A stretch of DNA of 64,000 bases from an uncultured Planctomycetia bacterium (GCA_964527765.1 CAZGQR010000003.1:75366-139365), one strand, 5' to 3'; shown: positions 461-56,440, counted from the first letter of the stretch. Program-made: numbers and translations. Notes: generated by a model from the sequence alone, not told the origin.

Positions 461-871
461 TTATACTTTTGACGGCGGGGTGTTTTTCAGGTATTCCGTG
501 GAGGCTTTCCTGAAAGAAAGGCTTTTGCGGTTGTATAGGTTGCATTCTCTCCGGAACTGCGTGATCTCTCCGATCTCTTTTTCAAGCGTTAGGGGAAAGT
601 CTTTCGGAACATTAAAGAACTTGGCGCCGATGTTATAGATATTCTTCCCGAGCTGCCTGACATAGACGATGATCGCCTTCAGGCGGAACATCTTGTTCTT
701 AAGGAAGACGTGGACATGTACCTTGTCATTTTTGCGCACTTCTTCCGTGGCAGTGAACGCAATGCCCCCTCCGCTTACATCTACCAGATCAAGGGGCCCG
801 TTCACGTGCTTTTCATCCCCTTCGATCGGGTAAGCGGCCATATAACGCTTCCATTTTCTTCTTTCTACCAT
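461..871 (-). CDS. stand-alone PilZ-domain (c-di-GMP binding) protein, about 136 aa
   Basis: The C-terminal 136 aa of the 263-aa ORF carry the PilZ signatures RRKWKRY (RxxxR) and DVSGGGIAF (DxSxxG); internal ATG at 869-871; upstream part of the ORF looks like non-coding read-through. Confidence 0.6.
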   Translation of the reverse strand: MVERRKWKRYMAAYPIEGDEKHVNGPLDLVDVSGGGIAFTATEEVRKNDKVHVHVFLKNKMFRLKAIIVYVRQLGKNIYNIGAKFFNVPKDFPLTLEKEIGEITQFRRECNLYNRKSLSFRKASTEYLKNTPPSKV

Positions 872-975
872 AGCGTTTACAAGTATATCACAACAATTAA
901 AGCAAGTAAAGGTTAGTATATCAAAAAGTCGGATAGGCCGGAAAAATGCTGCTTTTTGCTTGCGGGACGCGAAAT

Positions 976-1608
976 TCAGCGGGCGGCATCGCCGTTTTCC
1001 GCTTCTTTGCCGACAAAAAGAAGAGGAAATATGATATCGCTTACGCAGCAGGGCACCCAAACGGCGAGAAATAAAAATAAAAAGACAGCCGCGTAGGAAA
1101 AGAAATTTAACGCTTTCCCTGCCGCCATGATAACATGAAAAAGCGACGCCCATGTGCTTACCAGAACATGTCCCGCGTGCGGAAACCGGGTCCTGGGCCA
1201 GAAATACGCAATGGTTATGCCGGCCACAGCGAGAGGGTTCACAAGCCACCATTCCTCGATAAAACCTATATGCGGTTCGGCGTGCGGCATCCCCAGGAGA
1301 AGTTCCCCGAGATAGGGTATGACCGAATCACTTAATGTCGCTATGCCGATCGATCCAACGTAGCCGACAATAAGCAGCGCCGCAATACTGCATCGTCCCC
1401 TGTCGGCCCTGCACTTATAATTTTTGTACATGGCGGCAGTAACCAGCGCGCTCAGGACAACGTGTATCGGATGAAGCGTGTAAAAAACATCGTAGGCGGT
1501 CCTGTAGGGCAGCTTGCAGAAAAACAGCATGATGACCACTCCTGTCAACGCGCCAAAAGCGGTAAACGGGGCATGCCTTCTCAGCTCGTACAGGATTGTG
1601 CTTTTCAT
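976..1608 (-). CDS. polytopic membrane protein with several His-rich motifs (possible metal-dependent membrane hydrolase)
   Basis: 210 aa, about 6 hydrophobic segments, motifs HPIHVV, HAEPH, HAGH, FHVIMA; no confident family assignment. Confidence 0.45.
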   Translation of the reverse strand: MKSTILYELRRHAPFTAFGALTGVVIMLFFCKLPYRTAYDVFYTLHPIHVVLSALVTAAMYKNYKCRADRGRCSIAALLIVGYVGSIGIATLSDSVIPYLGELLLGMPHAEPHIGFIEEWWLVNPLAVAGITIAYFWPRTRFPHAGHVLVSTWASLFHVIMAAGKALNFFSYAAVFLFLFLAVWVPCCVSDIIFPLLFVGKEAENGDAAR

Positions 1609-1621
1609 GTGCGGAAAGCTC

Positions 1622-2662
1622 TTACTCGCTCAGTAATCTCTCAAACAGGTCTATATACCGCCTGGCTATTCTTTTCGGTGAATGCGCTTCCACGAATTTA
1701 TCCGCGTCTTCTATAAGGTGTTTCCGCTTCTTCTCGCTGCCAAGCAGGTCGATGAGTCTCTTGTTCAGGGCGGTAATGTCCCTGTAGTGGATCACTTCGC
1801 TTGTCCAGTCATGAAAAAAATCCGACTGACTGGGGACGAATATCGGACAGCCGGCGCCCATCGCCTGATAGACGGTCGACGAGACAACAGCGTGGAACCG
1901 GCTCTGGAATTTATGAAGGATGACCGCGTCCGAGGCAAAAAGGTAATCATCGAATTCTTTCGTCGACAAAGCATTGCATTTTCGCACTATCCGCCAATCG
2001 GTGGGGGTCAGCTCCTCAAGCATCTGGTAATCTTTGGCAACAAGATGCAAAAGGACCGCCTTTCTTTTGAGCTTCGGGGGCAGATCCCTGTAATAGGAAT
2101 GATACCCGCGCATGCCGAACGAATAGATGATCTTCTTGTCCAGCGGAAGTTTCAGCCTTTTTCTGGCCGCGGTTTTTTTGCACCTCCTCAGCTCCCAGGC
2201 GGGAAACGGGATATATTCCGCATCCGGGTAGATCTTCCGCAGGAAGTCCTGCCTGTGATCGAAATAAACGATCTTATCCCAGTCTATCTCATAAAACCAC
2301 GAATGGTCGCATATCCTGTTCTCGTGGACAACGTGCACCAGTTTTGCCTTCTTCCTCAGCACGGGGATTATATTGGACAATTTTTCCACCGGCAGCATTC
2401 CCAGGTCTTCGACAAGAAGCACGTCAAAATCGGTTTCCAGGAACGGGCGGGCATCCAGAGCATAAGTCCCTGTCCTTGTCCCGAAACATCTTTTCACGTA
2501 ACTTTCGTCCTTGGCGGTGATACCCTCCCCGTGATAATCATGCCTCGAAAAGGTGAACACCGTTACCTTGTGCCCCATCTCCCTGAAGGCCCTGCCTATG
2601 GGCTCCGCGTGCATCGCGACTCCGCTATTTGTATTCCATGCAGCCATGATTCCTATTTTCAT
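1622..2662 (-). CDS. GT4-family (GT-B fold) glycosyltransferase
   Basis: Start MKIGIMAAW; Rossmann-like N-terminus, C-terminal region typical of retaining GT4 enzymes (SDAVIL...GAGCPIF); start moved to ATG 2662 from ORF 1622..2704. Confidence 0.55.
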   Translation of the reverse strand: MKIGIMAAWNTNSGVAMHAEPIGRAFREMGHKVTVFTFSRHDYHGEGITAKDESYVKRCFGTRTGTYALDARPFLETDFDVLLVEDLGMLPVEKLSNIIPVLRKKAKLVHVVHENRICDHSWFYEIDWDKIVYFDHRQDFLRKIYPDAEYIPFPAWELRRCKKTAARKRLKLPLDKKIIYSFGMRGYHSYYRDLPPKLKRKAVLLHLVAKDYQMLEELTPTDWRIVRKCNALSTKEFDDYLFASDAVILHKFQSRFHAVVSSTVYQAMGAGCPIFVPSQSDFFHDWTSEVIHYRDITALNKRLIDLLGSEKKRKHLIEDADKFVEAHSPKRIARRYIDLFERLLSE

Positions 2663-2710
2663 TCCGTATCCTCCTTCTGGCAGAACGTTTCTGCAGTCGC
2701 CCAAATATTA

Positions 2711-3778
2711 TCATGTAAACGGAACTTTTGCAAGGCGGTCCTCTTTTAAGATGTCCGAAACCGTTCCCTGCCACTCCGTGTCCCCGTAACGTATCTTCCG
2801 GAAATGCCAGTATTCGGCCCCCCAGAGCAAGATGGCGTCAACTCCAAGCTCCCGGAATTCCCTGAAAAGTTCCGCCATCATCTCGGGCGCACTCGTCAAT
2901 ACCGCCCCTTCCCCTTTATGGACCAGCTGGCCGGGCTCCCAGGGTTCCGCTTGAAGCTCCGCGATCCAGGCCTTTTTTCCCTTACTTTGCGCGAGCGCCA
3001 GGACTTTTGAAAAATATCTCTCCCGCTCCTTCCGGCTGGTGCGGAAATATAGATCCGCGTTCCAGAACTCTTTTCCTACGACCGGATAGACATTAAGCCC
3101 CAGGATATCGCCTATGGCCAGGCATTCCCTGACGGGGTCATGCCGGCTAAGAAGGCGGTTGAGAAAGCGAAGGATCCTGTTGGGATATGTTGCCGTCGTC
3201 AAAAGGATCGGGCGCTTTCTCCCGTCGAGGCTCCTTACAAGCTCCACTTCCTGCTCTAAAAAAGCCCTGCCTATAAACCAGTATTGCCTCCCGGTGCGGT
3301 TCAGCGGCTCGTTCTCAACCTGCCACCAATGTATGATGGAATCGTCCTTATAGCGATCTACGACTTTTCTTATGAATTGAAGCGTGCGTTTTCGCAGATA
3401 TTCGTCTCTTGAGACATCCGTGCCGAAGGAAAGAGAAGTTCTTTTCAAGACCCAGTCGGGGATAAAATATTCGGGCCACCGGGGAGCCTTCATGCCTACC
3501 GTCAGCGCAACAGGGACCTTCTTTTTCGCGGCTTCATGTATCTGCCAGTCAAGAGCGGAAAAGTCATAGACATTTTCTTCTTTCTCTATTTCGTCCCAGT
3601 AGGCTCCCAGGCGAATAAGGTCGAACCCGGCCTCGAGTATGGAAAGATAGGTTTTTTCCCGGTCCATCCCCAGGTATTCGCTCTGGCGCGGACTGTAGGT
3701 CGTTCCTATTTGCACCGGTCCCGCATACAGCGCCGAGCACTGGAAAACAAATAATACCGCGAGGGCAAGCGCCTTCAT
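2711..3778 (-). CDS. secreted TIM-barrel glycoside hydrolase (clan GH-A-like)
   Basis: N-terminal signal peptide MKALALAVLFVFQCSALYA; catalytic-acid-like motif WWQVENEP and nucleophile-like AELQAEPWE. Confidence 0.5.
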   Translation of the reverse strand: MKALALAVLFVFQCSALYAGPVQIGTTYSPRQSEYLGMDREKTYLSILEAGFDLIRLGAYWDEIEKEENVYDFSALDWQIHEAAKKKVPVALTVGMKAPRWPEYFIPDWVLKRTSLSFGTDVSRDEYLRKRTLQFIRKVVDRYKDDSIIHWWQVENEPLNRTGRQYWFIGRAFLEQEVELVRSLDGRKRPILLTTATYPNRILRFLNRLLSRHDPVRECLAIGDILGLNVYPVVGKEFWNADLYFRTSRKERERYFSKVLALAQSKGKKAWIAELQAEPWEPGQLVHKGEGAVLTSAPEMMAELFREFRELGVDAILLWGAEYWHFRKIRYGDTEWQGTVSDILKEDRLAKVPFT

Positions 3779-3785
3779 AGACTTG

Positions 3786-5423
3786 TTATTTCCGTTTTTT
3801 GTCGGTGACCCAGAACGTCATATACCTGCCGAACATGAGCCGCGTCTGGGCATCCAGCGCAGGCAATGCGCTCAAAAAGATGATCGTCAGCGGGACCAGC
3901 AGCCACTGCAAGGCGAACCCTATCCTTTTAAAAATAGGATGTTTTTCTTTCTTTTCGGGCAGCAGCAGCAGGCTCAGTATGATGCTTGTGATCAGCGAGA
4001 GTGTCGCGAGGTGAAATATGGTTCCTGTGATGCGCGGCGCGCTGTAATAAAAGACGGAGTGCGAAAAATCCCTTCCGGCGAAAATAGCCGGCAGCCACCC
4101 GATGATCGTAAGCAGAAAAGCCCAGGTCGTCCAGGAAATATGGCCTTCGAACAATTTATACCCGCACTTTATCCTGCTCATGAGGGGTATGCCGCTCTTT
4201 TTCAAAAAGGCCCTCATCACTATGGGAAAATTTTCCACTCCCCAGGCCCATCGTCTTTTCTGCTTGTAGACATTGACGACCGTCTGCCACCATGTATCTG
4301 CGACCACCGCATCCATGGAAAGCGTGGTATACATCGGGACCACATGATATTTTCCGTCATAATGGACAAATGCTTTCCAGAATATAGCCGAGTCGTCCGA
4401 GATCATATCCACCGGCCAGTACCCTACTTCGACCAACGCTTTAAAACTCATGCTGTGGCTTGAAAACGTGACCAGCGTCTGGGGGTTGGTCGCCTCGATG
4501 AGCTGAAAAAAGGAAGACCCCGCCTCAAGGACCCTGGTGATCCCCGGCGCATCCCAGATATTATTGTTGTACACCGGTACGGGCTGAAAGCTTGCGCGGG
4601 TCCTCCACGGACATATCAAGAAATAATAAGTAAGGCTTGCGAAATACATGGGGCTCACCACTGTATCCGCGTCAAAACAGGATGAGATCACATTATCAAA
4701 ATGGATCTTTCGCTCCGCGAAATATTCCGCTGCTCTCTTCGCCGCAAAGGTCGTGTTGGCTCCCTTGGCCCGGGCCTCGCCGACAATACCGTCGGGGTGA
4801 ACGACTATCAGTATATCGAAAAAAGAGTCCCGGTAAACGTCCCTGATCTGTTCTGCCCCCTTTTTGACTTCCCCGCTCGCTCTTTCTTCCAGGGCCAGGA
4901 TCACCACGATCTGCTTCGGGGGAAATGTTCCTGCGGCAAGGCTTGCGATGCCCGGCTCGACGACTTCACGCGTCTCCTTGGCTACCGGGATAATGACCAG
5001 ATGATAAATATCCGCTGAAAGCGGCTGGTCGCCCCCGGCCCCTTTCAGGGATTCGACCTCCCTGCGATGGCATAACAGCGAGACCTTCTCCCTCGCATCC
5101 CCCGTTAAGGGCCGTTTCTTGAGCTGCCCAAGATATTCATCAAGCCGGTCCAGGCCGCGCACTCTTTCCATCCAGTCGGTCTTCTTCTCGACAGAAAGCC
5201 TGAGATAGGAAAGAATAAGGAAAAGGGTCATGTATAACAACTTTAAAAGCCAGTAAAAATAAAAAGCGATTATTATCACGGCGGCGGCGAGGGGATGCAC
5301 AAAAGCCAGGATGGCCAGCCCTATGATGATGGTCCAGCTCGTTGCGCCGGGGACGATCTCAAAAAAACGCTGAAGTGTTCTTTCCCGTCCGGTCAGCTTA
5401 TTGCCGGTGAAGTCGAACCTCAT
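3786..5423 (-). CDS. integral-membrane processive GT2 glycan synthase (cellulose/chitin/hyaluronan-synthase-like)
   Basis: 2 N-terminal TM helices, DAD motif (CFDADTVVSP), QKRRWAWG (Q-x-x-R-W) motif, C-terminal TM bundle; 4-bp overlap with the upstream gene. Confidence 0.65.
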   Translation of the reverse strand: MRFDFTGNKLTGRERTLQRFFEIVPGATSWTIIIGLAILAFVHPLAAAVIIIAFYFYWLLKLLYMTLFLILSYLRLSVEKKTDWMERVRGLDRLDEYLGQLKKRPLTGDAREKVSLLCHRREVESLKGAGGDQPLSADIYHLVIIPVAKETREVVEPGIASLAAGTFPPKQIVVILALEERASGEVKKGAEQIRDVYRDSFFDILIVVHPDGIVGEARAKGANTTFAAKRAAEYFAERKIHFDNVISSCFDADTVVSPMYFASLTYYFLICPWRTRASFQPVPVYNNNIWDAPGITRVLEAGSSFFQLIEATNPQTLVTFSSHSMSFKALVEVGYWPVDMISDDSAIFWKAFVHYDGKYHVVPMYTTLSMDAVVADTWWQTVVNVYKQKRRWAWGVENFPIVMRAFLKKSGIPLMSRIKCGYKLFEGHISWTTWAFLLTIIGWLPAIFAGRDFSHSVFYYSAPRITGTIFHLATLSLITSIILSLLLLPEKKEKHPIFKRIGFALQWLLVPLTIIFLSALPALDAQTRLMFGRYMTFWVTDKKRK

Positions 5424-6886
5424 GATCCTCCTGTTTGTTCGGTTTTATTTTCTTCCGTTGCTGCGGGAAAAGGCGTCGGGACCATGCCCTTGCTGGGCAC
5501 TATCTCGACCGAAAGAAGGTTCTCCGTCCCGGGTTCAAGAAAATACATTTTCCCCGTCTGTTCCGCATAATAGACCGCGCTTTTATCTTTCACATGAAAA
5601 AGATGATCCAGCGTGAACTCGCCATATTCCTCTATCTCTATCAGGAAAACGTCATTACCGTCCCGAAACAGTATGTGCGACCCCTCGTATACCCAGAAAC
5701 ACTGTTCGATGTCCTTGCCCTCCCTGTAGGCCCACGAAAGGGTAGGGCCTTTTTCGAACTGCACATCCTGTGTTTCCTCGGTCGAGAAGTCCAGTATCCC
5801 GATCCTGTCTTTCTGCCATACAAGCGCGCGCTCGAGTTTCGGATCGAATTCGACTCCCCTTACGCCTTTTTCGATAAACCGGTACGGGAGGCGGTTCGCC
5901 AGAAGCTTTCCGTCCTCACCCAGAAAAAGCATATAATCTTCGGAAAGAACCCTTACGTGAAAAAACCCCTTTTGTCCGAAGATAGAGGCGCCCAGCGCCT
6001 GATCGTCCATCAGCACTTTTTTGCTTTTTGTGTCATAGCTCATTTTCAAAAAAATATTATCACCGTGCAGAACGTATACTTCGCCGTTGAGCAGGCCGTA
6101 CCCCCGGACGTTCGGAACGCACCTTGGGTAGACCGCGCCGGAATCTACCTCCACCCGGCTCAGATAGTCTTCCTGAAAGGCAAAAAGAGTTTTTTCCTGC
6201 CCGGGCAGCCATTTGACCGCGCTGGGCACAACAGGGAAAAGCCCCGTAATATCTTCAACTGCATCCTTGTCTTCTCCGAGCTCTACCCATAGAAATCTCT
6301 CCCCGCCCCGGGAAGCAAGGCGCAAAATGACAACACAACTTTCCCTCACCGTAAAATATGACGCCAGTTCAGCGCCCGCAAAAGGAGAGTCTTTTTCAAA
6401 CAGCGCATGCGCTTTTTCGTTATTGTAATCGTATACCAGGATATCCCCCGCCGCCGGCCCGCCTGCAGCGAGAAAAAAGCCGCTTCCGGGAACGGGGAGC
6501 AGGTCCTGTATCCTATCGGGAAGAAGGGTGCTGGTTTTCCACTGAAGCGGCAGCAGCAGGATCTTGTCCAAAACCGTTGCTTTTTCAACTTCTACGGGGA
6601 CCGTCTGAGACCAGGGTTTATGATCATCCAGGGTCAGCTTGACGGGATAATCGCCCGGGACGAGCCCGCGGACCACAGTCGGGGTATTCTCCGCGTACTG
6701 ACTGTCCTTCAGGTAAATGGCGGCACCGGTCGGAGCGGTCGATAAATAGATCACCCCTGTTTGCACAACGCTCTCCTCCGCCCCGGGCCTGTAAATGTAC
6801 CCGAACGCATACAGAAGAATAAGCGGGCACAAGATTATGTATATGGCGGCAAAAATGTAAAAGAAGATCCTTCTTAAAAGCTGCAT
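5420..6886 (-). CDS. membrane-anchored protein with PEGA-like beta-sandwich domain plus about 370 aa beta-rich domain
   Basis: N-terminal TM helix (IFFYIFAAIYIILCPLILL), PEGA-like segment (IYLKDSQYAENTPTVVRGLVPGDYPVKL), remainder without known motifs. Confidence 0.4.
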   Translation of the reverse strand: MQLLRRIFFYIFAAIYIILCPLILLYAFGYIYRPGAEESVVQTGVIYLSTAPTGAAIYLKDSQYAENTPTVVRGLVPGDYPVKLTLDDHKPWSQTVPVEVEKATVLDKILLLPLQWKTSTLLPDRIQDLLPVPGSGFFLAAGGPAAGDILVYDYNNEKAHALFEKDSPFAGAELASYFTVRESCVVILRLASRGGERFLWVELGEDKDAVEDITGLFPVVPSAVKWLPGQEKTLFAFQEDYLSRVEVDSGAVYPRCVPNVRGYGLLNGEVYVLHGDNIFLKMSYDTKSKKVLMDDQALGASIFGQKGFFHVRVLSEDYMLFLGEDGKLLANRLPYRFIEKGVRGVEFDPKLERALVWQKDRIGILDFSTEETQDVQFEKGPTLSWAYREGKDIEQCFWVYEGSHILFRDGNDVFLIEIEEYGEFTLDHLFHVKDKSAVYYAEQTGKMYFLEPGTENLLSVEIVPSKGMVPTPFPAATEENKTEQTGGS

Positions 6887-6895
6887 ATCTTCTCT

Positions 6896-8323
6896 CTACC
6901 TTTCCAGTCCTTCCCAGATAACTTCGAAACGCTTCTTAAGATCATCGGTGGAGAACGGCCAGACCGTGCGCCCGTAAAGAGCCTGGGTTACTTCCTTGTA
7001 GGAAAGCTTGTTCATCCTGAACTTAGGTATTTTATTGTCGATCTCAAGACAGTAGCGCATGAGCAGGAGCTGTTTCTGGACCATGTGGGGAAGCAAAAAG
7101 TGCTGCTGCACGGTCTCCCGGGCATGCTTGCTGAGAGTTTCCCGCAGCAGTTTATCTTCCAGGATAGACCTTATTGCCCGGAATATTTCGGCGCGCTCAT
7201 AAGGCTCGACCAGAAAACCGTTATGCCCGTTCACGACCTGCTTCTTTATCCCCCCGACCTTACTGCCTACCACGGGAGTCCCCTGCCACATCGCCTCAGA
7301 GACCACAAGACCGAACCCTTCCTTTGTGGAAACATGGACAAAGCAATCGGCGATCGTCAGAAGCGAGCCGATGATCTCGTCGTTATTTTCCACATTGAGC
7401 AAAAGGTGGATGTCCTCTTCTCCCTCGGCGGCTTTTTTCATCTCTTCGTACATCTTCATGCCCTCGGGGTCGTCGGTGGCGGAATTGCCGACCAGGATAA
7501 GGAGCGGGTGGGCCCCTTTTATGGGATTTTTTTTCAGAAGTTTAAACGCTTCTATGATAGCCCTCTGGTTCTTATGAATATCGTACCGTGATACCGCTGC
7601 CACTATCGGCCGTTCCGGATCTATATTATGCTTGTTGAACAATTGTTCCAGGGTCTTCAGGGCCTCCTTCCTGGAGCGGGGTTTATTCTTCGCCCGCAGG
7701 GGGTCGATCGAGGGGGTTATTTCGTAAGCGGGGATCTGTATGTTGTCCCTCATAAATTCCTTCGCCGTAAAGATAGCCCCTTCGTATTGGTTGATATAAG
7801 GAAGCAGAAAACGCCAGATCCTGCGGCTGGCGCTTGAAGTATCTATATGGCACCGCCAGAATATGTGGCCGTATACATTGCCGTTCATGATTATAGCGGC
7901 GGGCTGCGGGTCGTGGATAGTGACCATGTGCCCCACGACTTCTACCCCGCGGGTATTTTCATCGATCGTGTCAAGATAGGCGTGGAAGATCTCCCTGAGC
8001 GTGATGGTCTGGTCGACCCCCTGAAGCAGGTTGTGGAATTTCTTCGTCACCGTGAAAAATTCTTCGCTGCCCTCTATGACGAACCACCTTGCGTCGATGC
8101 CGAGCCCTCTCGCGAACGGTACCACGCTCTGGAGCATCTCCGCGACGCCGCCGCCGATAAAAGTGGAGTTTACGTTCGCCCATACTTTCTTCTCCAGGTC
8201 CCCGGCCAGGAACTTGATATTGTCCATCAATTCCTTCCCGACAAAAGGCTCATACAGATCGACATTAACGGGCTCAAGCGGAACATATTCGTTCCCGTAT
8301 TTTCTGCTCTTATCATCAAACAT
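6896..8323 (-). CDS. treT: trehalose glycosyltransferring synthase-like GT4 enzyme (TreT-like)
   Basis: NVNSTFIGGGVAEMLQSVVPFARGLGIDARWFVIEGSEEFF...HNLLQG closely matches the N-terminal signature of archaeal/bacterial TreT as recalled from memory. Confidence 0.55.
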   Translation of the reverse strand: MFDDKSRKYGNEYVPLEPVNVDLYEPFVGKELMDNIKFLAGDLEKKVWANVNSTFIGGGVAEMLQSVVPFARGLGIDARWFVIEGSEEFFTVTKKFHNLLQGVDQTITLREIFHAYLDTIDENTRGVEVVGHMVTIHDPQPAAIIMNGNVYGHIFWRCHIDTSSASRRIWRFLLPYINQYEGAIFTAKEFMRDNIQIPAYEITPSIDPLRAKNKPRSRKEALKTLEQLFNKHNIDPERPIVAAVSRYDIHKNQRAIIEAFKLLKKNPIKGAHPLLILVGNSATDDPEGMKMYEEMKKAAEGEEDIHLLLNVENNDEIIGSLLTIADCFVHVSTKEGFGLVVSEAMWQGTPVVGSKVGGIKKQVVNGHNGFLVEPYERAEIFRAIRSILEDKLLRETLSKHARETVQQHFLLPHMVQKQLLLMRYCLEIDNKIPKFRMNKLSYKEVTQALYGRTVWPFSTDDLKKRFEVIWEGLER

Positions 8324-9131
8324 GTCCTTCTAACCCCCTTTTCAGCGTAAAAAGCAACCCGAGGAATCTTCTTACTTCTCCCGTGTCGCTCAAATAATAA
8401 TCGGCAAAGCTGGACCGGCCGCCGCCCTTTCCTACTTTTATGGTATACCCGCGGCGCTTTAAAAGGCGGAACGCATCTTCATCCGTCCTGTCGTCGCCGA
8501 TATAGAATGGGACTATCCTGCCTTTTATTTGTTTCTGTTTTTCTCCAAGCAAATGCAGGGCTGTCTTCCCCTTGTCCCATTTTACCGGAGGCCGGATCTC
8601 CCACACCTTTTTGCCTTTCGTTATAACGACCCTTCCCCGGGCACTATACGGTCCCGCGATGCTCTTGAAGATGTTTTCGGCTTGTTTTACCCTGCGCTTA
8701 TCGACCATCCGGAAATGAACGCTCAAGGTCAAGGTCTTGTCCTCTATATAGATACCCCTGAAGGAACGGTACCTTTTTTTTAATTCTCTGCCTATCTTGC
8801 TGATCGTTCTCTTTGCCTTCAGGGCCTCCGGCACGACATGCCGCAGACCCGGGCCCCTGGCTTCCAGGCCGTGATTGCCGGCATAAACGATGCCTGAGAC
8901 GCCGACGCGCCTCCGGACATCCCGGAGCGCCCGGCCGCTTATGACCGCTACCGATATATTTTCCCGGGAAAGGAGTTTTTTCAATGCTTTCGCGGTGGCA
9001 CCGCTCAGTCTGACCTTTTTCGGGTGCCTCCTGATCAGGGTAAGAGTCCCGTCAAAATCAAGAAAAAGATAAAGATATTTATTCCTGACTTCATCCGCTA
9101 TTTCCGGCCACTTTTTAATCAAGTGTTCCAT
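8316..9131 (-). CDS. otsB: trehalose-6-phosphate phosphatase
   Basis: HAD motif I LFLDFDGTL, motif IV GDDRTDE; 8-bp overlap with treT. Confidence 0.7.
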   Translation of the reverse strand: MEHLIKKWPEIADEVRNKYLYLFLDFDGTLTLIRRHPKKVRLSGATAKALKKLLSRENISVAVISGRALRDVRRRVGVSGIVYAGNHGLEARGPGLRHVVPEALKAKRTISKIGRELKKRYRSFRGIYIEDKTLTLSVHFRMVDKRRVKQAENIFKSIAGPYSARGRVVITKGKKVWEIRPPVKWDKGKTALHLLGEKQKQIKGRIVPFYIGDDRTDEDAFRLLKRRGYTIKVGKGGGRSSFADYYLSDTGEVRRFLGLLFTLKRGLEGHV

Positions 9132-9137
9132 TCTCTT

Positions 9138-10622
9138 TTATTCTTCTCTGATCATGAAGGGCTTTTTTGCCTGCTCGAAATACCGCAGGCAGTTCTGAAG
9201 CCAGATCCCAATATTGTTGAATTTGATGTTTCTGCGCATCCTGCCCATCCTCCGCCTTCTTTCCTCCACCGGCATATGGAGAGCCTGATATATGGCATTG
9301 GCGATGTCTTCGATGCTGTACGGATTGACGGGAAGACAGTTCTTTATCTCGGCTATGGCCCCGGCGAACTTGGAAAGGACCAGAACGCCGTCATTGTCGG
9401 AATGGGCGGCAACGTATTCCTTGCACACAAGGTTCATCCCGTCCCTCAACGGGGTCACCAGGGCCACGTCCGACGCCAGATAAAGGGCTACCAGCTCCTC
9501 AAACGGGATCGTCCCGTAATTGTAATGGATGGGCGCCCACAGGCCTGTCGAGAACTTCCCGTTGACCCGCCCGATTATTTCATCGATCTCTTTCTTCAGC
9601 GTTTTGTAAGTCTCCACGTCTTCCCTGCTGGGGATCACCAGCTGATAATAAAAGAATTTTTCTGCCAGCTCGGGATGTTCGTTAAGAAGCTGCTCCAGGC
9701 CGAGCAGTCTTTCCTTTATGCCCTTGGAATAATCGATGCGGTCAATGCCGAGTATCAGTTTCGGGCACGCGGCCTGCTGAAGTATCTCCTCTTTTCTCGC
9801 GATCACTTCCGGCTTGCGCGATGTTCTGTCCAGCAGCTCGAAATCTATGCTTATGGGGTTGGCGAAAAAACGTGTTTTGATATTCTCCTCGATGGTTTTA
9901 TCCTTCGGGATGCTTTTTTCTTTAAGATAGACATCGACCGCTCCCAGGAAATTTTTCAAATACTGCCGGTGCTGAAAACCGACCGTATTGCAGCAAAGAA
10001 GGGACCTTAGTATCTGTCGCTGCCACGGCAAGATCGAAAAGATATCCATGTGCGGGAATGGTATGTGCAGGAAAAAGTGTATTTCCTGTTCCGGCCGCAG
10101 CTGCCTGAGGTAATAGGGCGCCAGGAACAGGTGGAAGTCCTGGATCCATACGATATCGTTTTCCGCGGCGACCCTGTCGATGCAGGCGGCAAAACGTTTA
10201 TTGACCGCAGCGTATGTTTCCCAGGCGGAATAATCAAGAAAGGATTTTTCGAAAAAATAATGAAAAAGCGCCCACAGGGTGCCGTTCGAAAAACGGTTAT
10301 AATATTCGTCCAGCTCGTTGTGGTTTATAGGCACGCAGCCGATGCGGTAGGATTTGCCCCGTTTCCGCCTGAGCTCCTCTTTGGATTCTACTTTCCCGAT
10401 GTCTATAAGTTTCAGTTTCTCTTTTTGCGGGCTTTCAGCGGGGTATCCGTCCCAGCCCAGCCATACCCCGTCGGCATCGAGCAGGATCGGCTCCATGGCG
10501 GTAATAAGCCCGCCCGCGGCTTTCCCCCAGGCAAAGTTGCCTTTTTCGTCCTTATACCTGTAAAAAGGAAGCCTGTTAGACACGACAACGAGGCCCCTGT
10601 CTTTGCCCTTAAAGCGGATCAT
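9138..10622 (-). CDS. otsA: alpha,alpha-trehalose-phosphate synthase (GT20)
   Basis: VVVSNRLP N-terminal motif, IWIQDFHL, 494 aa. Confidence 0.8.
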   Translation of the reverse strand: MIRFKGKDRGLVVVSNRLPFYRYKDEKGNFAWGKAAGGLITAMEPILLDADGVWLGWDGYPAESPQKEKLKLIDIGKVESKEELRRKRGKSYRIGCVPINHNELDEYYNRFSNGTLWALFHYFFEKSFLDYSAWETYAAVNKRFAACIDRVAAENDIVWIQDFHLFLAPYYLRQLRPEQEIHFFLHIPFPHMDIFSILPWQRQILRSLLCCNTVGFQHRQYLKNFLGAVDVYLKEKSIPKDKTIEENIKTRFFANPISIDFELLDRTSRKPEVIARKEEILQQAACPKLILGIDRIDYSKGIKERLLGLEQLLNEHPELAEKFFYYQLVIPSREDVETYKTLKKEIDEIIGRVNGKFSTGLWAPIHYNYGTIPFEELVALYLASDVALVTPLRDGMNLVCKEYVAAHSDNDGVLVLSKFAGAIAEIKNCLPVNPYSIEDIANAIYQALHMPVEERRRRMGRMRRNIKFNNIGIWLQNCLRYFEQAKKPFMIREE

Positions 10623-10751: not shown

Positions 10752-11780
10752 TCATTTTCGGCTGTAAGTCTCGGTGAATTTAATGATCATGTCCATCATC
10801 TTTACCGCCTCGACGGGATACCGACCGGCCGCCGATTCTTCCGAAAGCATCACGAAATCAGTGCCGTCGAGTATTGCATTGGCGACATCGGTGGTCTCGG
10901 CGCGCGTGGGCCGGCTGTGCTCGGTCATGTGCTCCAGCATCTGTGTCGCGGTGATCACGAACTTTTTCTTCTGGTTGCATTTTTTTATGATCATCTTCTG
11001 TATGATGGGGATCTCATAGATGGGCACCGCTACCCCCATGTCTCCTCTGGCCACCATTATGCCGTCCGAGGCATCAATGATCTCATCTATGTTCCTTATG
11101 GCCTCCCTGCTTTCTATCTTGGCCACGACAAGGCATTGAAAAGATCTCTGTTTTATGTGCTTCCTGATCGTATCGATGTCTTCCTTGCTGCGGACAAAAG
11201 ATTGAGAGACATAATCCACCTTGTGTTTTATCCCGAAATCAAGATCCTTTTTGTCTTTCGGCGTGACTCCGGCAAAGGGAATATGGACACCCGGCATGTT
11301 AATGCCCTTGCGCTCCTTCAGGATGCCCCCTTCGATCACTTCCGCTTTCACTTTCTTTTCTGATGTGCCCTTTGCTTTAAGGATTATATTGCCGTCATCT
11401 ATGTATATGAGCTGTCCCGCTTTTATCCCCTTCAGGTTTCCTTTGTAATCAAAGGGGATCACTCGCTCCTCCCCCGTATCCGGCTCTGCCGTAAGCCAGA
11501 CCGTTGCTTTTTTATCGAGCGTTTTGGTCTTTTTGCCCTTGAACCTGCATACCCGGATGCGAAATCCTTCCAGGTCCTGCATGATGCGGATATGCCGCCT
11601 GTATTTTTTGTTGATCTTTCTTATCAGTTCTATCCGCCCGAGGTGCTCTTTATGGCTCCCGTGTGAAAAATTGAGCCGGGCGACATTCAGCCCGGCCATG
11701 ACCATCTTGCGCAGCACGGTATAGCTGCTGCTGGCCGGTCCTATTGTCGCGATGATCTTTGTTCTGGCAAGTCTTTCCAT
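10752..11780 (-). CDS. pyk: pyruvate kinase, short form lacking C-terminal regulatory domain
   Basis: [25 protein letters not shown] motifs; ends after the A domain (about 342 aa). Confidence 0.75.
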
Positions 11781-11816
11781 TTTTTTTCTGGCCATGATTT
11801 GTCCTCCGCGTAGTTA

Positions 11817-12239
11817 TTATGAAATATCGTGCTTGCAGACCCGAAAGACCTGGATGTCGGGGGCATACCGCTTGAACATCTCAACGACATGCTCGTCGTC
11901 ATCGAAAAACATGCCCACATCGCTCTCCTTGCAGTACCTTACCTTCTGCCAGACGAATTTCTCATAGTCGCTGAGCCCGGCATGCGGGCAATCTTCCACC
12001 TCGCCTTCCTGTTTCGGAAGATGATATATTGTGTCATATGCGATGCTGCCCGCGCTTAGATCCCTCAGCGTTCTTTCCCTGTCCGCGTTCCGATCGGGCC
12101 TGGTAGTGACAACGTGCACTTCCCAGCCCTCTTTCCTGGCTGCATTTGAAAGAAGGCTGAAAAAATCGGGCTGTCTCATTATTGTGTCATCGACATCCAG
12201 CCCTATCTTTATTTTTTTCTTTTTTCCTTTTCGCGTCAT
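11817..12239 (-). CDS. small HAD-superfamily phosphatase (5'(3')-deoxyribonucleotidase-like)
   Basis: DVDDT motif I, TTR motif II, FFDDDE motif IV; 140 aa. Confidence 0.45.
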   Translation of the reverse strand: MTRKGKKKKIKIGLDVDDTIMRQPDFFSLLSNAARKEGWEVHVVTTRPDRNADRERTLRDLSAGSIAYDTIYHLPKQEGEVEDCPHAGLSDYEKFVWQKVRYCKESDVGMFFDDDEHVVEMFKRYAPDIQVFRVCKHDIS

Positions 12240-12248
12240 CTCTCCAGA

Positions 12249-12824
12249 TCATTTTTTCACGGCCGGCACTATTATTTTCCCTTCTTCGTCGTCCCCGTAA
12301 GCCGTGAAGTCTCCCTTCCTGTAATAATACGCCGTTACTGCGGCGCATACCGCGTCTAAAAGGTCCTGCCCGCCCTTCTTTGAAACGAAATGGATCGGCA
12401 GGTTAAAAAACAGCTTGCTGTCCTTGAAACAATTATACGAAGCTGTGGGGAAAACTTCTATCACGTTCGGCCGCCGGATCCCAAAAGCGTCGAATAAATA
12501 GAACCCCACCTGGAACCAATCATGTTTTTCGGAATCGAACGTCTCTCTTGTCGGGGTGAACTGCGGGTTTGCGAGCTTCCGGGATCTTATCTCTCTCTCG
12601 CACTGTCTGCCGTTTTTCGGCCCCTTAGAAAGATACCTCGAGGCGTCTATCGCGATGACGGAATCCTTTCCATACTTGTCATAGATCTTTCTGGCCAGCT
12701 TGATCGCGTCTTCCTTCGAAGAGACCTTCTCGGCCAGGATCTTCTCGATCTCAAGCCGATCGTTCAACACGGCGATAACCTGGTTTCTCTTGCTGCCCGC
12801 GACATCGATCCCTATATATCTCAC
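12249..12824 (-). CDS. DUF429-like predicted RNase H-fold protein
   Basis: N-terminus MRYIGIDVAGSKRNQV and VIAIDAS resemble RuvC/YqgF/DUF429-type RNase H-like cores. Confidence 0.4.
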   Translation of the reverse strand: MRYIGIDVAGSKRNQVIAVLNDRLEIEKILAEKVSSKEDAIKLARKIYDKYGKDSVIAIDASRYLSKGPKNGRQCEREIRSRKLANPQFTPTRETFDSEKHDWFQVGFYLFDAFGIRRPNVIEVFPTASYNCFKDSKLFFNLPIHFVSKKGGQDLLDAVCAAVTAYYYRKGDFTAYGDDEEGKIIVPAVKK

Positions 12825-12842
12825 GCCTGCTCTCCCGGATCC

Positions 12843-13127
12843 TTACTCCTCTTCGGTCTCTATTAATCTTTTCCGCTGTATATATTCTGTCTTTGTCAGT
12901 CCTCCGCGCTGATACTCCCGGTCAAGATCCCTCATCAGCCTGTCATGCCGCGGCCGGGGTCCGGATCCCGCCAGCGGCTCCGGAGGCGGATCCGCTTCAG
13001 AGCCTATCCGCTCCCCGGGTTCCGCCTTGTCCTCTCCGGCAAAAGCTGAGGCGGCAGTGCCGGACCCTTTCGGCGCTGCCGTCAAAAGAGCAATGATCGC
13101 CATACACAGAAAAAATTTTATCTTCAC
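12843..13127 (-). CDS. small secreted/lipo-protein with C-terminal SHOCT-like motif
   Basis: Likely GTG/ATG start giving signal peptide (V/M)KIKFFLCMAIIALLTAAPKGSG; Pro/Gly-rich linker; C-terminal GGLTKTEYIQRKRLI resembles a SHOCT domain. Confidence 0.4.
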   Translation of the reverse strand: MKIKFFLCMAIIALLTAAPKGSGTAASAFAGEDKAEPGERIGSEADPPPEPLAGSGPRPRHDRLMRDLDREYQRGGLTKTEYIQRKRLIETEEE

Positions 13128-13208
13128 GCGGGTCCCTCTCGTTATCCTGCTCCAAAGATACGCCTTTCCATCCTCTGTAATTATAGCGTATCTTGAATAA
13201 GGCGGGAA

Positions 13209-13245
13209 GAAATAAAAAGCCCGGCTTAAGATCAGCCGGGCTCCT
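13209..13245 (-). terminator. rho-independent terminator downstream of the tRNA-Val/tRNA-Asp pair
   Basis: GC hairpin GAGCCCGGCTGATCTTAAGCCGGGCT followed by TTTTTATTT on the minus strand. Confidence 0.45.
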
Positions 13246-13251
13246 AACATC

Positions 13252-13329
13252 TGGCGGGGCGGACGGGGCTCGAACCCGCGACCTTCGGATCGACAGTCCG
13301 ACGTTCTAAACCAACTGAACTACCGCCCC
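13252..13329 (-). tRNA. tRNA-Asp (GTC)
   Basis: Cloverleaf readable by eye: acceptor GGGGCGG/CCGCCCC, anticodon loop CTGTCGA, T-loop TTCGAGC, 3' CCA encoded. Confidence 0.8.
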
Positions 13330-13415
13330 TTTGAGCGTGTGTTTATTTATAACACAGAACACCTGGCGCGTCAATCGCTCCGTAACGCATCGGCCGAGAG
13401 TCCGAATTTCAATAG

Positions 13416-13494
13416 TGGTGGGCGATGTAGGATTCGAACCTACGACATCTACCTTGTAAGGGTAGCGCTCTAAACCAGCTGAGCTAATCGCCCG
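13416..13494 (-). tRNA. tRNA-Val (TAC)
   Basis: Acceptor GGGCGAT/ATCGCCC, anticodon loop CTTACAA, T-loop TTCGAAT, CCA encoded. Confidence 0.8.
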
Positions 13495-16097: not shown

Positions 16098-16176
16098 TGG
16101 CGTCCCCAAGGGGATTCGAACCCCTGTCGACAGATCGAAAATCTGTTGTCCTAGGCCAGGCTAGACGATGGGGACG
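16098..16176 (-). tRNA. tRNA-Glu (TTC)
   Basis: Acceptor GTCCCCA/TGGGGAC, anticodon loop TTTTCGA, T-loop TTCGAAT, CCA encoded. Confidence 0.8.
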
Positions 16177-22767: not shown

Positions 22768-22931
22768 TTCTTCCTCCTATGTAACCACTGTTTTACTACA
22801 AGTAAGAATATATTAAATATTGTAGTCGTATTAGTAAAAGAGCCTGTAAGTTGTGTGATTTTACGATAACCCCCCGCCAGAAAAGAACTTGCATTATTAA
22901 CAACCTGTGGATAAGTACGGGATAACTTTAA
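22768..22931. promoter_or_regulatory. dnaA-dnaN intergenic region with DnaA box and AT-rich tract (possible second oriC module)
   Basis: TGTGGATAA (complement of TTATCCACA) at 22906-22914; AT-rich aagaatatattaaatattgtagtcgtattagtaaaag. Confidence 0.4.
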
Positions 22932-24341
22932 TTATTTTCTTATAAGCGCAGTAAGCTTTTCTATAACGCTTTTTGTTTTTTTGTTTTCTTCGATCTCCCT
23001 GCTTATTTTATCACAAGCATGGAGCACCGTTGTGTGGTCTCTCCCCCCGAAGAAACCACCGATATCCGGCAGGGAATAATCCGTCATTTCCCGCGAAAGG
23101 TACATGGCAAGCTGCCGGGGGTATACTATGGCGCGCGTCCTCTTTTTTGTTTTCATGTCAGGTTCTTTGATGTCAAAAAAGCCCGCGACGACCTTTTGTA
23201 TCAGATCAACGGTTATCTTCTTCTCCTCGGCCGCCAACATGCCCCGGAGGACCTCTTTAGCAAGGGCGACCGTTATTTCCTGTCCTGTAAGTTTTGCGTA
23301 CGCGACGACACGGATAAGGGCCCCCTCCATTTCCCGGATGTTTGTCCGTATGTTCTCCGCGAGAAAATACAGGACCTCCTTGGGAACCTTTACAGATTCA
23401 TTCTCGCTCTTTTTTTCCATGATGGCTATCCGCGTTTCAAAGTCAGGCAGCTGTATATCGGCGATCAGGCCCCAGGCGAACCTGGACACCAGGCGCTCCT
23501 CGAGACCCTGTATTTCCTGGGGGGACCGGTCGCTGGAAAGGACGATCTGTTTGTGCGCGTCATGCAGCGCGTTGAACGTATGAAAGAACTCCTCCTGCGT
23601 GGACTCCTTTCCGGCAATGAACTGGATATCGTCTATAAGAAGGATATCGACGTTTCTGTATCTGGCGCGGAACTTCGGCGTGGCCTTGGTCCGTATGGCG
23701 TGTATCAGCTGGTTGGTAAATTCCTCGCTTGACATGTACAAGACCCGGGCCTTTGGATGCCCTTTCAGGATCTCCTGTCCCATGGCCTGCATCAGGTGGG
23801 TCTTGCCCAGGCCGACCCCGCCGTACAGGAACAGCGGATTGTAAACCTTGGAAAGCTTTTCACAGACAGCCAGCGCCGCAGCGTGCGCGAAGCGGTTGCT
23901 CCCCCCGACAACAAAATTGTCGAAAGTGTAGTTGGGGTTGAGCCCCAGTTCCCGGTGGCGGCTTTCCGGCACCTGCCGCGTGCTGCTGAACACGGACTTC
24001 AACCATCCGACCGACTGTTCTTTATCCTTGGCTTCCGCGGGAACGGCCGGGGAGGAAGCGCGCCTTTCCCCGCCGCCGTCTTTTGCGTCGCTCTCGGAGG
24101 GCTCTTCAACGATCTCGAACTTTACCAGCAGACTTTTCCCGGAAGCCTGCTGAAGTGCCGTCTTTACCAGGCTTATATATTTTTCCCGGATCCAGCTCTC
24201 AAAGAATTTATTAGGGACTCCGAGGGTGATGGACTTGCTGTCCAGAGAAACCTGTGTTATAGGAAGGAACCAGGCATTAAAAATCTGGTCGTTCACTTCA
24301 GACTGAAGAATGGATAAGGCCTTTTTCCAGATATTTTCCAT
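22932..24341 (-). CDS. dnaA: chromosomal replication initiator protein DnaA
   Basis: AAA+ Walker A LFLYGGVGLGKTHLMQA; C-terminal DNA-binding domain; 469 aa. Confidence 0.95.
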   Translation of the reverse strand: MENIWKKALSILQSEVNDQIFNAWFLPITQVSLDSKSITLGVPNKFFESWIREKYISLVKTALQQASGKSLLVKFEIVEEPSESDAKDGGGERRASSPAVPAEAKDKEQSVGWLKSVFSSTRQVPESRHRELGLNPNYTFDNFVVGGSNRFAHAAALAVCEKLSKVYNPLFLYGGVGLGKTHLMQAMGQEILKGHPKARVLYMSSEEFTNQLIHAIRTKATPKFRARYRNVDILLIDDIQFIAGKESTQEEFFHTFNALHDAHKQIVLSSDRSPQEIQGLEERLVSRFAWGLIADIQLPDFETRIAIMEKKSENESVKVPKEVLYFLAENIRTNIREMEGALIRVVAYAKLTGQEITVALAKEVLRGMLAAEEKKITVDLIQKVVAGFFDIKEPDMKTKKRTRAIVYPRQLAMYLSREMTDYSLPDIGGFFGGRDHTTVLHACDKISREIEENKKTKSVIEKLTALIRK

Positions 24342-47600: not shown

Positions 47601-47674
47601 GGCGCGGTGGCCGAGCAGATAGGCAGCGGTCTGCAAAACCGCGTACACCGGTGCGAATCCGGTCCGCGCCTCCA
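47601..47674 (+). tRNA. tRNA-Cys (GCA)
   Basis: Acceptor GGCGCGG/CCGCGCC, anticodon loop CTGCAAA, T-loop TGCGAAT, CCA encoded. Confidence 0.8.
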
Positions 47675-47743
47675 GATTCTTGCGAAGCAGTGTTTTTCCG
47701 CAGATGCGGCGAATAGGGGCCTCGGAGAGGATGCTTAAAAGGT

Positions 47744-47831
47744 GGGCGAGTGGCGGAATTGGCAGACGCAAAGGACTTAAAATCCTTCGGTTGAATAAAC
47801 CATGAGGGTTCGAGTCCCTCCTTGCCCACCA
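47744..47831 (+). tRNA. tRNA-Leu (TAA)
   Basis: Long variable arm, anticodon loop CTTAAAA, T-loop TTCGAGT, CCA encoded. Confidence 0.8.
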
Positions 47832-47911
47832 TGCCGATACTGGAAGGTTGCATAGGAACACAAAAGGTGTCATAATATAGATTAATATTTTAGCCGGAAG
47901 AATAATACGGT

Positions 47912-47988
47912 GGGCGGTTAGCTCAGATGGTTAGAGCGCCACGTTGACATCGTGGAGGTCACTGGTTCGATCCCAGTATCGCCCACCA
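47912..47988 (+). tRNA. tRNA-Val (GAC)
   Basis: Acceptor GGGCGGT/ATCGCCC, anticodon loop TTGACAT, T-loop TTCGATC, CCA encoded. Confidence 0.8.
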
Positions 47989-56175: not shown

Positions 56176-56407
56176 AATTGTTCTTGATCCGGTTTTTATT
56201 GCAATGAATTCCATTGCGCCCGCCCCGCGGGTGGTGATATAATAAATCCGTTACGATCTGTTTGACTCGTGAAGCGGGTTTATCGAATTGGGCCAACACT
56301 ATAGAACTGGGAGCCTAGCTCTGGCATTCTCTCGGGATTGTCAGGAGGGCACCCACCTGGACTACCAGGACACCAATTCTTTTCCTGCGCACGGTCTGAC
56401 GGATTTG

Positions 56408-56440
56408 GGGCCGGATTCATATCCGGCCCTAATTTTTCTC
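56408..56440 (+). terminator. strong rho-independent terminator 20 nt upstream of rarA
   Basis: Perfect 9-bp stem GGGCCGGAT-tcat-ATCCGGCCC followed by TAATTTTTCT. Confidence 0.5.

Follow-up and report, generated by a model that had tools for sequence, protein, structure and literature searches.

A PEGA-propeller protein paired with a membrane GT2 in Omnitrophota: a candidate glycan synthase with recurrent trehalose gene neighbors

The nine-gene block and its conserved core

A 64,000-nucleotide stretch of DNA (the window) from an uncultured Planctomycetia bacterium (GCA_964527765.1, CAZGQR010000003.1:75366-139365) contains, at positions 461 to 10622, nine consecutive open reading frames (ORFs), all on the minus strand. 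From the upstream end they encode OtsA-like, OtsB, and TreT-type trehalose proteins, a membrane-anchored PEGA-domain protein, a membrane glycosyltransferase of family GT2, a glycoside hydrolase (GH) of clan GH-A, a divergent GT4-like protein (GT4b), a polytopic membrane protein (Mem), and a small PilZ protein. A first-pass annotation of the window had assigned roughly these identities, which the ORFs and their Pfam and NCBIfam domains confirmed. Our main subject is the GT2 (3786-5423, 545 amino acids) with its PEGA-containing partner (5420-6886, 488 amino acids), a gene pair that is conserved in nearly every related locus examined and that probably forms the core of a glycan synthase.

The block had been described as packed with overlaps or gaps of at most 50 bp. 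Between otsA and the PilZ gene, the junctions measure, in order, +6, −8, +9, −4, +7, +48, +13, and +104 bp; the description holds for the first seven, while the gap between Mem and PilZ is twice as wide as claimed. The chromosomal replication origin falls within the window: dnaA occupies 22932-24341 on the minus strand, the genes dnaA, dnaN, gyrB, and gyrA cover 16.2 to 24.3 kb of that strand, and from 25342 on the genes switch to the plus strand. At ~24 kb, the GC skew reverses its sign, and perfect DnaA boxes are found at 22906, 24421, and 26645, with a window-wide DnaA box count not above chance. From dnaA down to position 461, all annotated genes occupy the minus strand. Because leading-strand bias beside oriC explains this arrangement, co-orientation is no evidence of an operon here. 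Promoter and terminator scans, which were at chance level overall and served as weak hints, gave a promoter-like site ahead of otsA (10706-10677) and another inside the 104-bp gap (910-882). No riboswitch or other Rfam element was found in the block.

Six-frame ORFs of 82 Omnitrophota loci, the sample to which the locus counts below refer, were searched with the window proteins. The PEGA gene directly precedes the GT2 gene in 81 of them, the single exception being a contig that ends inside GT2. The 4-bp overlap reported for the two genes in the window was measured as such, and it proved typical: the stop of the partner and the start of GT2 overlap in 53 of the 75 loci where this could be measured, 37 of which share exactly 4 bp, and the two genes are no more than 31 bp apart in 72. 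These junctions suggest that translational coupling of the pair is conserved. In an all-versus-all clustering of neighboring genes, no other family was present in more than about a quarter of the loci, and no outer-membrane or polysaccharide exporter was among the recurrent neighbors. The additional recurrent neighbors, each in a small subset of loci, are a MarR-TolC-RND efflux set, an ABC ATPase, CdaA, an H+-pyrophosphatase (H+-PPase), and TerC. In one locus (L035), the CdaA-type diadenylate cyclase (a c-di-AMP synthase; 11677-12876) lies directly downstream of GT2, and a CdaA gene is found within 10 kb of the pair in nine loci.

The first-pass annotation had treated all nine genes as one machine, with conservation of gene order in relatives as the proposed check. 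Only the PEGA-GT2 order is kept phylum-wide; the hydrolase gene is present in 23 of the 72 loci with enough downstream sequence, and GT4b, Mem, and PilZ belong to a single subclade. The block is therefore not a single machine of nine genes.

More than 3,000 database relatives of the GT2 were found. The best 120 share 58 to 100% identity with it over the full length, and their named sources are almost all metagenome-assembled genomes (MAGs) of Candidatus Omnitrophota. A HMMER search of 1.8 billion cluster representatives returned 1,723 GT2 clusters at E ≤ 1e-3 and 317 at E ≤ 1e-30, so the family is distinct, moderately sized, and centered on Omnitrophota. When one genome per GTDB species was scanned, at least 594 stretches were confirmed, which places the GT2 in no fewer than 594 species-representative genomes. 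Of these, the best 80 align at full length with 54 to 79% identity; their records are Omnitrophota or third-party MAGs labeled “uncultured Planctomycetia,” “Planctomycetales,” or “bacterium,” and among them is the complete genome of “Ca. Velamenicoccus archaeovorus.” The MAGs labeled Planctomycetia or Planctomycetales (L006-L008, L013, L016, L019, L021, L024, L026, and others) carry an Omnitrophota-type pair at 55 to 77% identity, and their labels look too coarse or wrong.

The synthase, its partner, and the hydrolase

The GT2 has two N-terminal transmembrane (TM) helices, a cytosolic GT-A domain, and C-terminal TM helices. The motifs noted in the first-pass annotation are where they were claimed to be, QKRRWAWG at residues 388-395 and DAD within FDADT at 250-254, and are accompanied by KGAN (220-223) and ISDDSA (341-346). 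No variation was seen among 27 homologues in KGAN, FDADT, the SDD at the TED position, QKRRWAWG, or a FxxSHS region. The hallmarks of processive GT2 enzymes, namely DxD, a TED-like motif, and QxxRW in the GT-A domain, are thus all present. Conservation reaches the same level in the TM regions and in the catalytic core (0.70 to 0.75).

By sequence, this protein is difficult to place. Its only Pfam match, Glyco_trans_2_3, scores 23 bits, below the gathering threshold of 27, and no PilZ domain is detected. The sole NCBIfam match is TIGR03937 (PgaC_IcaA), with 28.6 bits against a cut-off of 422 (E 6.7e-7, residues 327-512); the BcsA models of NCBIfam gave no match at E ≤ 0.01, and neither the sequence nor its profile matched any PDB sequence at E ≤ 1. 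These results bear out the earlier claim that the GT2 falls outside BcsA, PgaC, and the other curated families. Among the E. coli synthases compared with hhalign, PgaC was the only significant match (probability 92.7%, E 4e-7, 329 columns), and the alignment holds a near-identical “ALxEVGYW..DMIxxD..I.WK” stretch. At this level, the profile match points to kinship within the superfamily only. Membership in BcsA was rejected, as no BcsA model matched and the hhalign probability was 17.9%; kinship with OpgH was likewise rejected, at a probability of 0.2%. The predicted fold, TM helices included, agrees with those of solved synthases, and the aligned length is greatest with hyaluronan synthase (HAS) and BcsA (334 to 345 residues). 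We therefore place the protein, as a divergent representative, in the membrane-integrated processive GT2 superfamily, closest to the PgaC branch but outside every described family; it is remotely PgaC-like by profile and, as modeled, HAS- and BcsA-like by fold.

The partner was modeled (AF2, mean predicted local distance difference test [pLDDT] 88) as a TM helix at residues 2-27, a PEGA beta-sandwich at 44-110, a beta-propeller at 118-461, and a disordered tail. By the positive-inside rule, the helix is oriented with its N terminus in the cytosol. PEGA (PF08308, E 1e-7) is the sole Pfam match, and no BcsB domain was found. Foldseek returned generic propellers only: the top match was Lp49, with its similar combination of an Ig-like domain and a propeller, followed by BamB and WD40 proteins. 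No enzyme was prominent among these matches, no OpgG-like protein was among the best, and a galactose-oxidase or GlxA-type structure was absent from the best 50. Conservation is higher in the TM helix (0.64) and PEGA domain (0.62) than in the propeller (0.50), and the conserved residues of the helix region are Y16, C20, P21, Y26, and G29. Such conservation would fit a specific intramembrane contact with the synthase, comparable to that of the BcsB anchor or of PgaD.

A GT2 relative at 49% identity keeps the PEGA partner, while relatives at 29 to 37% do not have it. In two of these distant relatives (29 to 33% identity), an ORF of 121 to 137 codons with three predicted TM helices overlaps or abuts the GT2 start (7632-7997 in L083 and 5595-6008 in L086), and the ORFs of these two loci recall the small partners of the PgaD/IcaD type. 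It seems that the GT2 family generally uses an upstream membrane partner, of which the PEGA-propeller protein is the Omnitrophota form.

Directly downstream of the GT2 gene, the window encodes the clan GH-A hydrolase (2711-3778, 355 amino acids), which has a hydrophobic N terminus. The Pfam matches to GH42 (2.7e-10), GH10 (1.8e-5), and GH5 (5e-4) cover the N-terminal half only. Among 21 orthologues, GH42 is matched by all 21, GH10 by 18, and GH5 by 11, in each case over strands 1-4 only. WQVENEP and ELQAEPW are invariant; WQVENEP is likely the acid/base motif, and ITELQAEPW likely contains the nucleophile region. In a profile search of the PDB, GH42 and GH35 beta-galactosidases were the best matches (4e-8), and PslG was matched at 4e-3. 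The protein is, as judged from these profiles, a clan GH-A enzyme that is not placeable in a single CAZy family and that would be expected to form a (beta/alpha)8 barrel. Wherever the hydrolase model detected it among the loci, the gene was directly behind GT2 and on the same strand; its absence from two thirds of the loci means that it is not essential to the system. Clan GH-A enzymes are retaining and act mostly on beta-linked neutral glycans, which fits the beta-linkage expected of an inverting GT2. Together, these results support the annotated succession of a GT2 with a membrane-anchored, beta-rich periplasmic partner and a secreted clan GH-A hydrolase.

Trehalose genes and lineage-specific neighbors

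Upstream of the pair are three genes of two trehalose pathways. The OtsA-like GT20 protein (9138-10622) matches PF00982 with 431 bits (E 4e-129) and TIGR02400 with 482.5 bits, under the equivalog cut-off of 564.85, and is probably a trehalose-6-phosphate synthase judging by these scores. OtsB (8316-9131), a trehalose-6-phosphate phosphatase, scores 156.9 bits against a cut-off of 68 for TIGR00685 and matches PF02358 at 7e-43. The TreT-type GT4 protein (6896-8323, 475 amino acids) combines PF21269 (160 bits against a cut-off of 27, E 3e-47) with a GT1 domain and matches the solved TreT structures 6zj4 (3e-88, residues 21-425) and 2x6q (1e-79); it stays under the Thermococcales-specific equivalog cut-off (303 against 775).

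The proposed link between the synthase genes and trehalose genes recurs in relatives. Homologues of OtsA, OtsB, or TreT lie within 10 kb of the PEGA-GT2 pair in about 10 loci, and most loci have none nearby. They accompany 9 of the 23 hydrolase-containing loci and 1 of the 49 others (Fisher p 7.7e-5, phylogeny ignored). Their placement varies: they are upstream of the PEGA gene in the window and in L008, L006, and L001, downstream of the hydrolase gene in L004, L009, L016, L020, and L025, and split around the core in L037, which is located elsewhere on the GT2 tree. None of the arrangements, at least four in number, breaks the PEGA-GT2-GH order. Since the trehalose genes vary in place and never interrupt this core, we regard the three-gene core as the unit and the trehalose genes as a movable, recurrent neighbor.

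Downstream of the core, GT4b (1622-2662, 346 amino acids) is a divergent GT4-like protein of the GT-B type with weak Pfam matches (Glyco_transf_4 at 4e-5 and Glyco_trans_1_2 at 1.5e-3) and no sequence match in the PDB. The 10 loci in which it was found all belong to a single subclade of the GT2 tree. It reads YQAMGAGCP at the position of the usual second Glu of the EX7E motif, which we take to occur in an E-A-M-x-G-x-P context in GT4 enzymes; going by this substitution, GT4b may be catalytically divergent or inactive.

Mem (976-1608, 210 amino acids) has no Pfam match. The description of it as a poly-His protein was not borne out, as its 8 His residues are scattered and the longest His run is 1; it is a protein with six TM helices and His motifs. 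Its homologues form more than 7,000 clusters at 63 to 78% identity, named from several phyla, and no Pfam model covers them. In two contigs outside Omnitrophota, one from WOR-3 and the other a metagenome contig in which a NikR gene is adjacent as well, homologues lie directly behind a Fur-family gene (5001-5624 in L090 and 5001-5618 in L091). This widespread distribution and the Fur-family context speak against the assignment of Mem to glycan machinery; in the most economical reading of its sequence relatives, Mem is probably a metal-ion transporter that stands outside the glycan system. The family as a whole may represent an uncharacterized metal transporter family.

The PilZ protein (461-871, 136 amino acids) matches PF07238 with 33.6 bits against a threshold of 22.5 (E 5e-8) and possesses both the RxxxR (RKWKR) and DxSxxG (DVSGGG) motifs. 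Its start at 871 is backed by homologues; a longer ORF (461-1252) would overlap Mem. About 2.9 kb separate the gene from the downstream end of GT2. PilZ genes are within 10 kb of the pair in only seven loci, all of the window's subclade, and in relatives they are 4.5 to 11 kb from the GT2 start with unrelated genes between. PilZ is probably a separate transcription unit. The 104-bp gap, the promoter-like site of its own, the variable distance, and its absence near most pairs make cyclic di-GMP (c-di-GMP) gating of the GT2 a guess, and an unsupported one. The intergenic region (871-976) contains TTTACT-17-TATACT with an extended TG, the −10 element ending ~10 nucleotides before the PilZ ATG, and no obvious Shine-Dalgarno sequence was seen ahead of PilZ in this region; the mRNA leader may be very short or missing altogether.

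GT4b, Mem, PilZ, and a pyruvate kinase gene occur only in a single 12-terminal subclade of the GT2 tree (11 loci and the window), within which the gene order may simply be inherited. GT4b, Mem, and PilZ are lineage-specific neighbors and not demonstrated parts of a machine. The pyruvate kinase (10752-11795, 347 amino acids) consists of the barrel domain without the C-terminal regulatory domain, and its gene is syntenic upstream of the glycan and trehalose genes in seven close relatives. Farther upstream, three small minus-strand ORFs at 11817-13250, one of them for a DUF429 protein, separate pyruvate kinase from GlmS. One of them, of 140 codons, recurs between the TreT and PEGA genes in L008, and one of 135 codons is syntenic in five relatives. 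GlmS, 3 kb upstream of the block, was considered as a conserved neighbor hinting at GlcNAc and was rejected, being present in one relative only. The RNA genes of the window include a 6S RNA (plus strand, 51.8 bits) and six tRNAs, at 56252-56409, 13255-13493, 16101-16175, and 47601-47985; two of the tRNAs lie a short way upstream of the block, in the interval that separates GlmS from the small ORFs.

A candidate glycan synthase among known systems

We propose that the GT2 and its coupled PEGA-propeller partner are the functional unit and form a two-component glycan synthase of the inner membrane, with an optional periplasmic hydrolase, and we give this reading a probability of roughly 0.65. It is built on the observed gene content, conservation, folds, and motifs, from which we infer processivity, the role of the partner, the product, and the coupling to trehalose as follows. 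Like BcsA, HAS, and PgaC, the GT2 would polymerize a nucleotide-sugar at the cytosolic face and move the chain across the membrane in a channel formed by its own TM helices. The TM helix of the partner would pack on the synthase in the manner of BcsB or PgaD, and on the periplasmic side the PEGA and propeller domains would take up the chain or direct its path. A secreted retaining hydrolase, present in about a third of the lineages including that of the window, would trim or release the polymer. Because a clan GH-A hydrolase accompanies an inverting GT2, we expect a polymer of beta-linked neutral hexoses, in the simplest case a beta-glucan; the product is probably beta-linked and possibly a glucan. 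As no linked exporter was found in the 82 loci, it may stay in the periplasm or envelope or exit by an unlinked route. In the lineage of the window, the otsA-otsB-treT genes may have been recruited beside the core through a shared stress regulon and a common UDP/ADP-glucose pool. Alternatively, TreT might run in reverse and convert trehalose into NDP-glucose for the synthase, like sucrose synthase feeding plant cellulose synthase.

It is tempting to extend this reading to the phylum. The pair might be a near-universal, lineage-defining envelope-glycan synthase of Omnitrophota that makes an undescribed polymer for the envelope or for attachment, with a new type of partner and, in some lineages, feeding by TreT; taken as a whole, this broader proposal is speculative and we consider it doubtful.

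Several observations count against the two-component synthase. The GT2 carries ALEERA where a DDG-type UDP-binding motif is usual, and its best profile match is a GlcNAc polymerase, at odds with a simple glucan. The structural model is of moderate quality (pLDDT 71.7), falling below 50 at residues 310-372, which hold the most conserved motifs. The hydrolase is missing from most loci, and the association with trehalose genes, found mostly in one main clade with L037 in addition, may be due in part to common descent. Lastly, we infer the sugar, the linkage, and even the processivity from computational comparisons.

The original proposal for the locus was a nine-gene, c-di-GMP-gated exopolysaccharide machine in which PilZ acts in trans, GT4b and Mem are subunits, and the trehalose genes feed the product. 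The PilZ motifs are canonical and the domain scores above the Pfam threshold, GT4b-Mem-PilZ follow the core on the same strand in four relatives (L003, L007, L001, and L006), and c-di-GMP receptors that act in trans or are borne by a partner serve alginate (Alg44) and PgaCD synthesis. However, the three genes accompany the pair in the 12-terminal subclade and are not around it in the other ~70 loci. The distance of PilZ with its intervening unrelated genes, the 104-bp gap with its promoter-like site, the Fur-family rather than glycan neighbors of Mem in other phyla, and the leading-strand bias that accounts for co-orientation also make such a machine quite improbable. Nothing pointed to the trehalose-containing product that had been suggested. 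The GlcNAc-type alternative, in which the GT2 is a distant polymerase of the PgaC/IcaA/NodC type with an N-acetylhexosamine product resembling poly-N-acetylglucosamine (PNAG), draws on the two profile matches to PgaC described above, on the PgaC-like topology, on the PgaD/IcaD-reminiscent small partner ORFs of distant relatives, and on GlmS upstream in the window. It is nevertheless unlikely: the family score is far below its cut-off, no CE4 deacetylase, GH153, or GH20 enzyme is among the nine genes or the identified recurrent neighbors, the linked hydrolase belongs to a clan that typically acts on neutral beta-glycans, and GlmS is near the pair in a single locus.

A function like that of the osmoregulated periplasmic glucans (OPGs) would place a periplasmic beta-glucan, processed by hydrolase and partner, in an osmoadaptation island together with trehalose. 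The lack of a linked outer-membrane exporter, the recurrence of trehalose genes, and the periplasmic location of both partner and hydrolase are consistent with it, and OpgGH likewise combines a GT2 with a periplasmic beta-rich protein, one that has glucanase activity. Yet homology to OpgH is undetectable, the partner is a PEGA-propeller protein for which Foldseek gave no OpgG-like structure among its best results, most loci have no trehalose genes nearby, and a missing linked exporter is weak evidence, since exporters can be encoded elsewhere. This explanation, which we rate as no less unlikely than a hexosamine polymer, overlaps the two-component synthase in mechanism, not in homology. Finally, the GT2 might be a non-processive enzyme that loads a sugar on a lipid carrier or membrane lipid (as GtrB, DPMS, or glycolipid synthases do), with the partner as periplasmic acceptor or handler; the moderate model and the ALEERA substitution leave some room for it. 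Against this stand the invariant hallmarks of the processive clade (QKRRWAWG, the TED-like SDD, and the FxxSHS region), the long alignment with HAS and BcsA that includes the TM helices, the highly conserved C-terminal TM bundle, and a hydrolase gene directly downstream that implies a polymeric substrate, so that we hold a non-processive role to be very improbable.

The phylum Omnitrophota is widespread and uncultivated; its cells are very small, many of these bacteria depend on a host, and to our knowledge the chemistry of their envelope is essentially unknown. A GT2 that shares 54 to 86% identity with its relatives in hundreds of species and has a constant and unusual partner is a strong candidate for a core envelope function. 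The set of partner, synthase, and hydrolase genes offers a concrete construct for finding the polymer and for asking whether a propeller protein substitutes for BcsB or PgaD, and the recurrent placement of trehalose genes leads to a testable hypothesis, that a compatible-solute pool is coupled to glycan synthesis.

Our searches of the literature on PEGA domains with synthases or exopolysaccharides, on Omnitrophota glycosyltransferases, and on TreT with cellulose synthase returned nothing relevant, and the Omnitrophota genome surveys checked mention neither PEGA, nor trehalose genes, nor the PEGA-GT2 pair. The impression of the first-pass annotation that the architecture is undescribed therefore stands for the literature searched. 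Among known systems, PgaC-PgaD/IcaA-IcaD is the closest by sequence profile. In both, the GT-A domain of the synthase stands between two N-terminal TM helices and a C-terminal TM bundle, the synthase needs a membrane partner with a gene of its own, and the locus also encodes a hydrolase that cleaves polymers. They differ in the low family score, in the partner (an upstream 488-residue TM-PEGA-propeller protein here, a small protein with two TM helices there), in the lack of a CE4 deacetylase (PgaB/IcaB), PgaD domain, or PgaA-type porin among the nine genes or the identified recurrent neighbors, and in the hydrolase, which is of clan GH-A instead of GH153. In comparison with BcsA-BcsB-BcsZ, the Omnitrophota system has no PilZ domain fused to the synthase, no BcsB domain, and no BcsC; its partner is anchored at the N terminus, unlike BcsB with its C-terminal anchor, and its hydrolase is of clan GH-A where BcsZ is a GH8 enzyme. 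The class I HAS enzymes of Chlorella virus and vertebrates work without a partner and share 13% identity with the GT2, with no match at the sequence level. OpgG-OpgH resembles the pair in joining a GT2 to a periplasmic beta-rich protein, in having no dedicated outer-membrane exporter, and in its link to osmoadaptation, and differs in the fold of the partner. In the Alg8/Alg44 system, the partner contains PilZ, whereas here it contains PEGA and PilZ is a separate protein of 136 amino acids. The same logic as in the window is known from CslA-GlxA-CslZ of Streptomyces, which unites a cellulose-synthase-like GT2, an N-terminally anchored propeller protein, and a glycanase; GlxA is a copper radical oxidase, whereas the Omnitrophota partner has a PEGA domain and no recognizable catalytic signature, and the hydrolases are of different families. 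Synthase-dependent logic of this kind is thus already known, and what is new here is the type of partner, a GT2 beyond the curated families, the near-universal conservation of the pair in the loci examined, and the link to trehalose genes.

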